This document shows, in pieces, positions 10,267 to 11,860 of a DNA stretch of 64,000 nucleotides. How positions within the stretch are numbered: position 1 is the first letter of the stretch; each line of letters begins with the position of its first letter. The notes beneath the pieces were generated by a model, which was given only the letters and a program-made list of their open reading frames with translations, made no database searches and was not told the origin of the DNA. The translations under genes were made by a program, and so were the position numbers. This DNA is from Escherichia coli (GTDB lineage: Bacteria; Pseudomonadota; Gammaproteobacteria; Enterobacterales; Enterobacteriaceae): assembly GCF_045037415.1 (NCBI RefSeq), contig NZ_CP173438.1, one strand, 5' to 3'.

Positions 10267-11199
10267 ATGCACTATCTGGGGTTGGATATTGGTGGGACCA
10301 AAATCGCCGCCGTTGTCATGGATGCGCATGGCTGGGAGATTCGCCGTTACCGCTGCCCGACGCAAAAGTCGACATATCAACAATTTGTCTCATGCGTTGT
10401 GGCGCTTATCGAGCAGATTAGGCGGGACGTTCAACGACCGATGCTGACAGGGATCGCCTTACCCGGCAGTATCTCGCCACTCACTGGCCTGATTAAAAAC
10501 GCGAATATTCAGGTGATTAACGGTCATGCGTTACAGGCTGATTTGCAGCAATTGCTTGGGCAACCGGTGGTGATAGCCAATGATGGTAACTGTTTCGCGC
10601 TATCAGAAGCTTGCGACGGTGCCGGGCAAGATTATGACGTGGTATTTGGTATTACGCTTGGTACGGGCTGCGGCGGTGGCATTGCCATCAAGCAACGACC
10701 GTTTATAGGGGCCTGGGGAAATGCTGCCGAATGCGGTCATATCACGTTGCCAGGCTATACGGAGCAGGAAGATGGTCCATCAGTCAGTTGCTATTGCGGC
10801 AAACACAACTGCGTGGAGTCGTTTGTTTCCGGCAGCGGTTTTAGTGAACGCTATCAACAGATGACTGGTAACTTGCTCACTCCTGCGGCGATTGTCACCC
10901 TGGCACAACGTGGTGATGCTTGTGCCATGCAGCAGGTGGCACGTTTTCGCCAACAGCTTGCCCGCACGCTGGCAACCATCGTTAACGTTGTTGACCCTGG
11001 CGTGATTGTGATCGGCGGCGGGCTTTCGAATGTGGAACTGCTTATCACCGATCTGAACGCAGAAGTCGCTCCACTGGTTTTCACCGATCAATTCACCACT
11101 CCCATTGTAAAAGCACAGCACGGCGACAGTAGCGGAATGCGTGGCGCTGCCTGGCTTGCTATGCGCAACGGAGAAGCCAATGAAACGTTCACAAATTAA
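10267..11199 (+). CDS. ROK-family sugar kinase (NagK/Mak-like)
   Basis: ORF-track protein from the internal Met MHYLGLDIGGTKIA (ATP-binding N-terminus, RBS AAGGAA upstream of ATG at 10267); ROK zinc motif CYCGKHNCVESFVSGSG; the longer ORF start at 10234 lies inside the upstream hairpin. Confidence 0.7.
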   Translation: MHYLGLDIGGTKIAAVVMDAHGWEIRRYRCPTQKSTYQQFVSCVVALIEQIRRDVQRPMLTGIALPGSISPLTGLIKNANIQVINGHALQADLQQLLGQPVVIANDGNCFALSEACDGAGQDYDVVFGITLGTGCGGGIAIKQRPFIGAWGNAAECGHITLPGYTEQEDGPSVSCYCGKHNCVESFVSGSGFSERYQQMTGNLLTPAAIVTLAQRGDACAMQQVARFRQQLARTLATIVNVVDPGVIVIGGGLSNVELLITDLNAEVAPLVFTDQFTTPIVKAQHGDSSGMRGAAWLAMRNGEANETFTN

Positions 11200-11860
11200 T
11201 TATGTTATTGATAAAGCACATGCCATTGCGCAGACCTTCCGCGTTTGTTTGCCAGAGTTCGCCTATTTTACGGTGGATGACTGGCTGCAGCGGGAACGGG
11301 ATAACTGGCAAGAAGTGGTCGACTTACAGCTCGGTTGGGATATCACCGATTTTGGTCGTGGTGATTTCAACCAAACGGGACTAACACTGCTAACGATGCG
11401 CAACGGCGCGCTGGGGTCGGCGGCATATCCAAAACCGTATGCTGAGAAAATGTTGCAGATCCAACAAGATCAGCAGACTCCCTGGCATTTTCACACCCAC
11501 AAAATGGAAGATATCCTCAATCGGGGCGGTGGAGACTTATGCATGCAGTTGGCCTGGGCCAACGAAGCCAATCTCTGTGATGATCAACGAGTCATTACCG
11601 TGAGTGTTGATGGTCAGCGGCGTACCATGAAACCTGGTGAAACGCTGGTGCTAAAGCCGGGGCAGGGCATTTGCCTGCCGCCGCGTCTGTATCATCGCTT
11701 CTGGGCGGAAAAAGCGTTTGTTCTCGGCTGGGAAATCTCGATGGTAAATGATGACCAACACGATAATTATTTTCTTGAGCCGGGAGGACGTTTTCCGGCG
11801 ATAGAAGAAGATGAACCGGTGAAATGGTTATTGTGCGGTGAGTATGGAATTTTGCGCTAA
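11180..11860 (+). CDS. Cupin-fold sugar isomerase, D-lyxose/D-mannose ketol-isomerase family
   Basis: 226 aa from MKRSQINYV (RBS GGAG upstream; overlaps the kinase gene end by 20 nt); cupin metal-binding motif context WHFHTHKMEDILNRGGGDL with downstream His; resembles characterised D-lyxose isomerases as I recall them. Confidence 0.6.
   Translation: MKRSQINYVIDKAHAIAQTFRVCLPEFAYFTVDDWLQRERDNWQEVVDLQLGWDITDFGRGDFNQTGLTLLTMRNGALGSAAYPKPYAEKMLQIQQDQQTPWHFHTHKMEDILNRGGGDLCMQLAWANEANLCDDQRVITVSVDGQRRTMKPGETLVLKPGQGICLPPRLYHRFWAEKAFVLGWEISMVNDDQHDNYFLEPGGRFPAIEEDEPVKWLLCGEYGILR

Follow-up and report, generated by a model that had tools for sequence, protein, structure and literature searches.

Introduction

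Which sugar is handled by the frz operon found in extraintestinal pathogenic Escherichia coli (ExPEC), and what does the last gene of this operon contribute to its handling? In the stretch of E. coli DNA analyzed here (64,000 nucleotides of contig NZ_CP173438.1, assembly GCF_045037415.1; hereafter, the window), the operon lies between yicI and yicH and ends with a gene for a cupin, which we refer to as frz cupin. The operon has been reported to promote fitness in serum and the gut and to shift the fim switch toward ON, in favor of type 1 fimbriae expression; fitness in late stationary phase and when oxygen is restricted also belongs to its reported phenotypes. It is in use as a virulence-associated marker of ExPEC and avian pathogenic E. 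coli (APEC). We here report a computational analysis that places frz cupin in the D-lyxose isomerase family and leads to a proposal on the type of sugar that it may act on.

The insert between yicI and yicH in the window is the published frz operon, because diagnostic primers published for frz with a product of 843 bp (PMC6238794) match in silico at 5322-5341 (forward, 0 mismatches) and 6145-6164 (reverse, 1 mismatch), giving a product of 843 bp, and the location agrees with the literature, in which GR27, "yicH..yicI", of 7,227 bp is equated with the frz operon described by Rouquet et al. 2009 (PMC12928451). The DNA of the window is 100% identical across 7.4 kb to that of E. coli strains such as SK1144. 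The eighth frz gene was reportedly called "a protein of the cupin superfamily" in the abstract of the original description, and the gene list reportedly given there is matched by that of the window, which consists of an activator of the phosphotransferase system (PTS) type, fructose-family EIIA, EIIB, and EIIC, two class II aldolases, a ROK kinase, and the cupin. RefSeq names the last product "D-lyxose/D-mannose family sugar isomerase," and the full-length gene was found in 1,605 of the 5,426 complete E. coli genomes, always on the chromosome and with that name in every listed record. The gene and the operon were thus already known from the RefSeq annotation and from the publication of frz in 2009, and the gene call adds nothing new. 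What is new here is the suggested coupling of the cupin to the ROK kinase, the recurrence of the module with transporters of the PTS, ATP-binding cassette (ABC), and major facilitator superfamily (MFS) types, the MFS and mutarotase context of the sister clade, and the synteny in Citrobacter and Klebsiella.

Results

Reading frame and conservation of the frz cupin gene

The gene is read on the + strand from an ATG at 11180 to a stop codon ending at 11860 and specifies 226 amino acids. A longer form of 239 amino acids, starting from a GTG at 11141, is given in the program-made list of open reading frames and was ruled out, and the ATG at 11180 was taken as the true start because the homologs all begin with MKRS, RefSeq starts there as well, and a Shine-Dalgarno sequence, GGAG, is present at 11170-11173. 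The gene is under strong purifying selection because, in comparison with the Citrobacter and Klebsiella aerogenes orthologs, nonsynonymous divergence (pN) was 0.11-0.19 against a saturated synonymous divergence (pS) of 0.71-0.80, and the ratio of nonsynonymous to synonymous substitution rates (dN/dS) between Citrobacter and Klebsiella was 0.098. A protein of this size and position with the motif WHFHTHKMED and a distal histidine had been singled out in a preliminary description of this DNA made from the sequence alone, and it was found as described, the motif being residues 102-111 (nucleotides 11483-11512) and the distal histidine H172 (nucleotides 11693-11695).

Family, fold, and active site of frz cupin

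The Pfam family PF07385 (Lyx_isomer, D-lyxose isomerase) matched frz cupin with 289.7 bits, for which the gathering cutoff is 20.8 bits, over profile positions 1-222 of 222 (E = 1.4e-86). This is far above chance and confirms that the gene is real. The only other Pfam matches at E <= 10 were generic cupin models (Cupin_2 and AraC_binding), both below threshold. The best sequence match in PDB was Z5688 of E. coli O157:H7 (3KMH/3MPB; 48-49% identity, E = 5e-64 for 3KMH), which was the sole close solved relative in this comparison. A model of frz cupin built by AlphaFold2 from an alignment of 35 sequences (pLDDT, 94.8) has helices at residues 3-48, followed by a barrel, and was superimposed by Foldseek on 3MPB with a TM score of 0.96 and an rmsd of 1.2 Å. 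The next-ranked fold matches were the D-lyxose isomerases (LIs) of Thermofilum and Bacillus subtilis and L-ribose isomerases, and the TM scores for the group 1 LIs were 0.5-0.6. With its 226 amino acids, frz cupin has the architecture of group 2, whose members are about 224-228 amino acids long and carry, as 3KMH does, helices that extend the cupin barrel at the N terminus.

The metal motif by itself is common to many cupins, and because the HxH...E...H pattern is generic, frz cupin could have belonged to a different family, such as that of the RmlC-like dTDP-sugar epimerases and 3,4-ketoisomerases. That family gave no Pfam match at E <= 10, PF07385 alone passed its threshold, and the RmlC-like dTDP-sugar isomerases 3EJK and 4ZU4 reached TM scores of 0.33-0.37 against the 0.96 of Z5688. 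This possibility is therefore refuted, with a residual probability that is practically nil. The proposal of the preliminary description that the protein is a D-lyxose isomerase-type cupin isomerase was, in turn, upheld by the full-length Pfam match, the best PDB match, the fold, and the conservation of the published active-site residues described below, and the structure prediction and metal-site comparison that it had called for both pointed the same way.

In a study of the Thermofilum enzyme (TsLI) and Z5688, the Mn2+ ligands were given as H75, H77, E88, and H143 and the sugar-binding residues as K62, K86, E156, and D163 (PMC8378251). By HMM alignment to 7NZO and 2Y0O, these correspond in frz cupin to H103, H105, E110, and H172 and to K90, K108, E185, and D192, respectively, where the equivalence of K90 and K62 is based on spacing and the alignment to 2Y0O. 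Motif 1 is invariant in the alignment of 35 sequences and likewise in the four clades described next. When 226 family members were compared in four clades (frz, Z5688, Salmonella, and the remainder), all eight of these residues were invariant or at least 95% conserved in every clade. Taken together, these similarities argue that frz cupin is very probably a catalytically competent isomerase of the D-lyxose isomerase family.

A quite different role would be that of mainly a sugar-binding sensor or regulatory partner, catalytic to a minor degree at most, by which an environmental sugar would be linked to the effect reported for frz on how the type 1 fimbriae switch is oriented. It could account for the published frz phenotypes, which are stress fitness and fim-switch orientation and not growth on a sugar, and some cupins are indeed ligand-binding domains, with which the subthreshold AraC_binding match of 15 bits would agree. 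Nevertheless, frz cupin retains the full catalytic constellation under strong purifying selection, carries no DNA-binding or signaling domain in Pfam, and has a predicted fold that hardly differs from the fold of an active enzyme, and the operon has its own PRD regulator. We consider such a role highly improbable.

Cupin-kinase-aldolase cassettes and the proposed role of frz cupin

In three independent enterobacterial cassettes, genes for a sugar kinase and a class II aldolase were found to accompany that for a Lyx_isomer cupin, each time with a different transporter: a PTS with a ROK kinase in frz, an ABC transporter with a PfkB kinase at Z5688 of O157, and an MFS transporter with a PfkB kinase in Salmonella. 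This recurrence supports an aldose-to-ketose entry step that precedes phosphorylation and aldol cleavage. The linkage of frz cupin to aldolases, a ROK kinase, and the components of a PTS, which had been pointed out in the preliminary description, is real, all of these genes being upstream on the same strand, and is conserved across genera.

The other two cassettes were located as follows. Z5688 was identified as ECs_5070 of E. coli O157 Sakai, with its sequence confirmed, and the surrounding genes ECs_5067-5073 (locus L008, 9701-16467) are for an ABC sugar transporter, a class II aldolase of the fructose-bisphosphate (FBP) type, and a PfkB kinase. Conversion of D-lyxose to D-xylulose would not require this operon context, and the native substrate of Z5688 may be other than D-lyxose. 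The cassette of Salmonella enterica (locus L004, 5455-14541; locus L005, 493-9590) has the order MFS transporter, aldose 1-epimerase, Lyx_isomer cupin, class II aldolase, PfkB kinase, Zn-dependent alcohol dehydrogenase (Zn-ADH), and DeoR regulator and is beside a phage-type integrase; its cupin, of the sister clade, is 62% identical to frz cupin.

From these results, it is likely that frz cupin is a metal-dependent isomerase of the group 2, D-lyxose/D-mannose family that acts, as the product of the last frz gene, on a free aldose and feeds the kinase and the aldolases. A divalent metal, probably Mn2+, would be held by H103, H105, E110, and H172, and K108, E185, and D192, with K90, would bind the sugar and catalyze proton transfer via a cis-enediol, the intermediate that has been put forward for Z5688 and TsLI. 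The most likely reaction would be that of a free aldose having the stereochemistry of D-lyxose and D-mannose at C2-C3 to a 2-ketose. The ketose would then be phosphorylated by the coupled Mak-like ROK kinase, and its phosphate or bisphosphate would be cleaved by the two class II aldolases, and the fructose-family PTS could supply the same pathway with a ketose entering as the 1-phosphate. That the protein is active as a catalyst, which metal it uses, that it prefers free sugar, what its substrate is, and how the steps are ordered we infer in this way, with a confidence that differs among these points. The substrate is probably unphosphorylated, judging from the MFS and mutarotase genes accompanying the sister clade, the finding of no basic residue peculiar to frz, and the family of the ROK kinase, since ROK kinases of the Mak/NagK type act on free sugars. 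The order from isomerase through ROK kinase to aldolase is a more tentative assignment, on which we incline slightly to doubt.

Several points weigh against this proposal. The NCBIfam equivalog NF051472 (D-lyxose/D-mannose isomerase, Z5688 clade) gave frz cupin 271.3 bits, which is below its cutoff of 350 bits. By this score, frz cupin is to be regarded as a paralog of Z5688 and not as its equivalog. Some of the differences from Z5688, furthermore, adjoin catalytic residues (R173, W184, and I186), so the specificity may differ. A PTS delivers phosphorylated sugar, which leaves the source of free sugar unexplained, and the survey of the operon genes by Pfam and RefSeq revealed no hydrolase or phosphatase gene. 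The conserved aldolase link was also absent in distant family members (Clostridiales, a 4.2-Mb metagenome contig, and gut metagenome contigs); a family-wide inference of the pathway was rejected for this reason, and the inference is therefore limited to Enterobacteriaceae. Lastly, reviews still give the function of frz as not clearly known, the description of 2009 is said to have identified no substrate, and our search of the literature found neither a frz substrate, nor a PTS-linked lyxose isomerase, nor an enzyme assay of frz cupin.

Phosphorylation state of the substrate

The placement of the gene in a PTS operon raises the possibility that frz cupin isomerizes an aldose-6-phosphate or ketose-phosphate delivered by the PTS, in the manner of the cupin-type phosphomannose isomerase (PMI) and phosphoglucose isomerase (PGI), in which case the D-lyxose isomerase family would have in it its first member acting on sugar phosphates. 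The phosphorylated state of PTS products, the absence of an obvious free-sugar source, and the score below the equivalog cutoff would all be in line with this. The frz and Z5688 clades differ systematically at about 20 positions, such as L71/F, Q93/H, Q95/R, C121/I, W126/N, R173/S, V181/G, G183/V, and W184/G. Among them, R173 could be seen as favoring a phosphorylated substrate because it is beside the metal ligand H172 and specific to the frz and Salmonella clades, and an anion could in principle be held by R74 and R204, which do not vary. However, R173, together with most of the clade-specific changes (C121, V181, G183, and W184), is common to the Salmonella clade, whose MFS and mutarotase context implies a free sugar, and the other residues (L71, Q93, Q95, and W126) are neutral; R74 and R204 are the same in all clades, among them that of Z5688, which acts on free sugar, and hence represent no adaptation to phosphate. 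No basic residue suited to phosphate was found only in frz in the comparison of the 226 sequences. In addition, the phosphosugar-isomerase families, including the PMI and glucose-6-phosphate isomerase (GPI) cupins, gave no Pfam match at E <= 10, the Thermococcus PMI 7ZVM reached a TM score of just 0.34, and the coupled ROK kinase would likewise require free sugar. A phosphorylated substrate is accordingly judged unlikely.

Relation of frz cupin to Z5688 and other homologs

Homologs of frz cupin with identities of at least 98% are those of E. coli, and those with 69-82% identity are found in Citrobacter, Raoultella, Salmonella, Klebsiella, Phytobacter, Kluyvera, and Buttiauxella. The closest sister clade is that of Salmonella, Buttiauxella, and Yokenella (60-64%), and the remaining homologs are about 50% identical. 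The Z5688 clade takes in Enterobacter, Citrobacter, Leclercia, Kosakonia, and Serratia, and the characterized enzyme of S. proteamaculans (228 amino acids) probably belongs to it. NCBI names this clade "D-lyxose/D-mannose isomerase" and the frz clade just "family sugar isomerase." Among the database records for P0170 and P0258, which are proteins of the Z5688 clade, some of Yersinia pseudotuberculosis and Citrobacter freundii carry the name "ATP synthase subunit delta," and some of Enterobacter carry "ABC-type sugar transport system, auxiliary component"; both are evident legacy misannotations.

It is conceivable that frz cupin does the same job as Z5688 and the classical enzyme of Aerobacter (Klebsiella) aerogenes, and that frz is a system for the utilization of D-mannose and D-fructose, or of D-lyxose. 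The conservation of all the sugar-binding residues, the nearness of the ROK partner to the manno/fructokinase Mak, and the assignment of the PTS to the fructose family would be compatible with this, and a K. aerogenes protein is also relevant. WP_154105566 (224 amino acids) has been placed in LI group 2 as "Klebsiella aerogenes LI" beside the enzyme of 1965 (PMC8378251). It falls in the 90% cluster of P0044, which is 70% identical to frz cupin, and because it is thus an ortholog of the frz type, a protein of the frz type is already counted among the D-lyxose isomerases in the literature. Yet no link between this sequence and the activity purified from A. aerogenes in 1965 was found in PMC8378251, where the two are tied by species name only. 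The score below the equivalog cutoff is a further difficulty, as is the fact that reviews list the function of frz as unknown. Moreover, a role in mannose or fructose use would not explain the keeping of two dedicated aldolases, and E. coli already uses these two sugars through ManXYZ/ManA and FruBKA. We regard this identity of function as possible but rather improbable and retain the proposal of a group 2 isomerase for a free aldose.

Other genes and elements of the frz operon

The operon consists of eight genes on the + strand with short spacers, namely, those for the PRD regulator, EIIA, EIIB, EIIC, two class II aldolases, the ROK kinase, and the cupin (Table 1). The three PTS components were above the cutoffs of TIGR00848, TIGR00829, and TIGR01427. 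A G+C content of 41-44% and a G+C content at third codon positions (GC3) of 35-42% were observed in the genes for the regulator, EIIA, and EIIB (4917-7299), distinctly below the 50-56% of the flanks and of the other operon genes.

Table 1. Positions in the window of the frz operon, its genes, and the elements discussed
Feature	Position	Strand	Basis or remark
frz-specific DNA (approximate extent)	4670-11895	not applicable	junction alignment vs K-12
PRD-containing Mga/BglG-type PTS regulator	4917-6470	+	Pfam HTH_11, Mga, PRD, PTS_IIB
Published frz PCR amplicon	5322-6164		inside PRD regulator gene; in silico primer match
Fructose-family PTS EIIA	6497-6967	+	Pfam and NCBIfam
Fructose-family PTS EIIB	6985-7299	+	Pfam and NCBIfam
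Fructose-family PTS EIIC	7324-8415	+	Pfam and NCBIfam
Class II aldolase 1, diverged (283 aa)	8427-9278	+	Pfam, 252.3 bits
Class II ketose-bisphosphate aldolase 2 (286 aa)	9359-10219	+	Pfam F_bP_aldolase, 304.8 bits
ROK-family sugar kinase, closest to Mak manno/fructokinase (310 aa)	10267-11199	+	Pfam ROK, 249 bits; start as RefSeq
Shine-Dalgarno GGAG for cupin	11170-11173	+	6 nt 5' of ATG 11180, within ROK gene 3' end
frz cupin CDS, probable group 2 D-lyxose/D-mannose family aldose-ketose isomerase	11180-11860	+	226 aa, RefSeq WP_001296536.1
Cupin motif 1 HFHTHKME: predicted metal ligands H103, H105, E110 and catalytic K108	11486-11509	+	sequence, alignments
Cupin motif 2: predicted metal ligand H172	11693-11695	+	HMM alignment to 7NZO and 2Y0O
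Predicted catalytic E185	11732-11734	+	HMM alignment to 7NZO and 2Y0O
Predicted catalytic D192	11753-11755	+	HMM alignment to 7NZO and 2Y0O
Intrinsic-terminator-like hairpin and T-run closing the operon	11870-11905 (hairpin 11870-11895)	+	consensus scan: 9-bp stem, 6 GC pairs, tail CCTTATTTTT

The ROK kinase scored 318.8 bits against the fructokinase model PRK09557 of NCBIfam, under the cutoff of 443 bits, and its best PDB matches were NagK-type kinases. The cupin gene, from its ATG, overlaps the ROK gene (stop codon at 11197-11199) by 20 nt. Since an overlap is kept in Citrobacter (also 20 nt) and K. aerogenes (4 nt), this arrangement suggests that the cupin is translationally coupled to the Mak-like ROK kinase.

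The aldolases had been described in the preliminary account as tagatose-type, which was not supported. Aldolase 2 passed the uncharacterized NCBIfam subfamily PRK08185 alone (525.9 bits; cutoff, 405), and FBP-aldolase models scored it above tagatose models; aldolase 1, which is 33% identical to aldolase 2, reached no NCBIfam cutoff. The C terminus of aldolase 1 is atypical in that most curated models stop near residue 233-247 of 283 and leave the last 40-50 residues unmatched; in related aldolases, this region helps to bind the distal phosphate. We also considered whether the cupin-linked aldolases form a co-evolving set, for which no specific support was obtained: aldolase 2 is 41-43% identical to the aldolases beside the O157 and Salmonella cupins, which are 58% identical to each other, and stands about as near to class IIb FBP aldolases of a generic kind in PDB, with scores of about 200 bits for each. 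The PDB neighbors of the two aldolases and the ROK kinase did not discriminate the substrate.

The terminator-like hairpin closing the operon sits between the convergent cupin and yicH genes, the cupin gene being the last before it. A second terminator-like hairpin with a T-run was noted at 4795-4813, in the frz-specific leader about 100 nt 5' of the start codon of the regulator gene, and might be a regulatory terminator, given the PRD/antiterminator-like nature of the regulator. The conserved terminator hairpin of yicI is at about 4635-4668.

History of the locus

E. coli K-12 is without the frz DNA, and its yicI and yicH genes are 52 bp apart. The same eight genes are present between yicJI and yicH-xanP-gltS in Citrobacter (locus L002, 3720-10678) and K. 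aerogenes (loci L006/L007, 3730-10675). The pS between E. coli and Citrobacter was 0.57-0.76 for the frz genes, compared with 0.68 for yicI and 0.66 for yicH. Because of this synteny and a divergence comparable to that of the flanks, the frz "island" is probably an old enterobacterial locus that was lost from K-12-like E. coli, rather than a recent insertion. The preliminary description had placed the cupin at the distal end of an island, of which the distal position stands, and the locus is probably ancestral and lost in some E. coli lineages.

K. aerogenes differs from E. coli in having genes for an RpiR/SIS regulator, a GH4 phospho-glucosidase, and a glucose-family PTS EIICB between the frz cupin gene and yicH (L006/L007, 10747-14910). 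GH4 systems of that kind release free hexose from phospho-disaccharides, and free hexose so released could feed a ROK kinase and isomerase. At the other side of the window, the gene for tRNA-Sec (selC) was found at 525-619 on the - strand, just upstream of yicJ, and in SK1144, which is identical, a gene named "virulence RhuM family protein" abuts selC. The window therefore begins at the edge of a selC-associated island.

Discussion

The assignment of frz cupin narrows the candidates for its substrate to aldoses and ketoses of the mannose and lyxose configurations, most likely unphosphorylated, and the coupling to the ROK kinase and the recurrence of the module yield a short and concrete list of assays. 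Going further, frz cupin and its sister clades could catalyze the entry step of an undescribed route, from isomerase through kinase to class II aldolase, for a rare mannose-configured sugar that in vivo is neither D-lyxose nor D-mannose, with the route being wired to a PTS, an ABC transporter, or an MFS transporter. In ExPEC, flux through it would then be the signal behind the reported frz effects on serum and gut fitness and on type 1 fimbriae. The rare sugar could be, for example, D-talose/D-tagatose, L-gulose/L-sorbose, or 6-deoxy-D-mannose or 6-deoxy-D-talose derived from bacterial or host glycans. We put this extended scheme forward as a speculation that is doubtful as a whole.

The frz operon of the window can be compared with several known systems. 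In the ExPEC/APEC strain BEN2908 (Rouquet et al. 2009, J Bacteriol 191:4427), frz occupies the same locus between yicI and yicH with a size of about 7.2 kb, and nothing structural differs; the assignment of the cupin to the D-lyxose isomerases postdates that description and came via Z5688 and RefSeq. The ortholog in K. aerogenes, WP_154105566, is likewise encoded at the end of this operon of eight genes, which again lies between yicI and yicH. Z5688/ECs_5070 (EcSI; 3KMH and 3MPB), which is characterized, is like frz cupin in Pfam family, metal ligands, and catalytic residues, is of almost the same length (227 vs 226 amino acids), and likewise has genes for a class II aldolase and a sugar kinase beside its own, but its gene is at another chromosomal site, between yjcS and the phn operon, where the transporter is of the ABC type and not a PTS and the kinase is PfkB and not ROK. 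The group 1 LIs (YdaE of B. subtilis, 2Y0O; TsLI, 7NZO-7NZQ) share the catalytic residues and the cupin core with frz cupin, whereas they are shorter (167-183 amino acids), just about 18-19% identical, and more distant in fold, as indicated by the TM scores above. The proteins of the Salmonella/Buttiauxella/Yokenella clade (e.g., P0049), which are uncharacterized, are also tied to a class II aldolase and a kinase, and their cassette differs from frz in having an MFS transporter in place of the PTS, PfkB in place of ROK, a single aldolase, and an adjoining integrase. The layout of this uncharacterized cassette parallels the fucose and rhamnose pathways with non-homologous enzymes, and the rare-sugar route proposed here for frz would follow the same logic as those two pathways.

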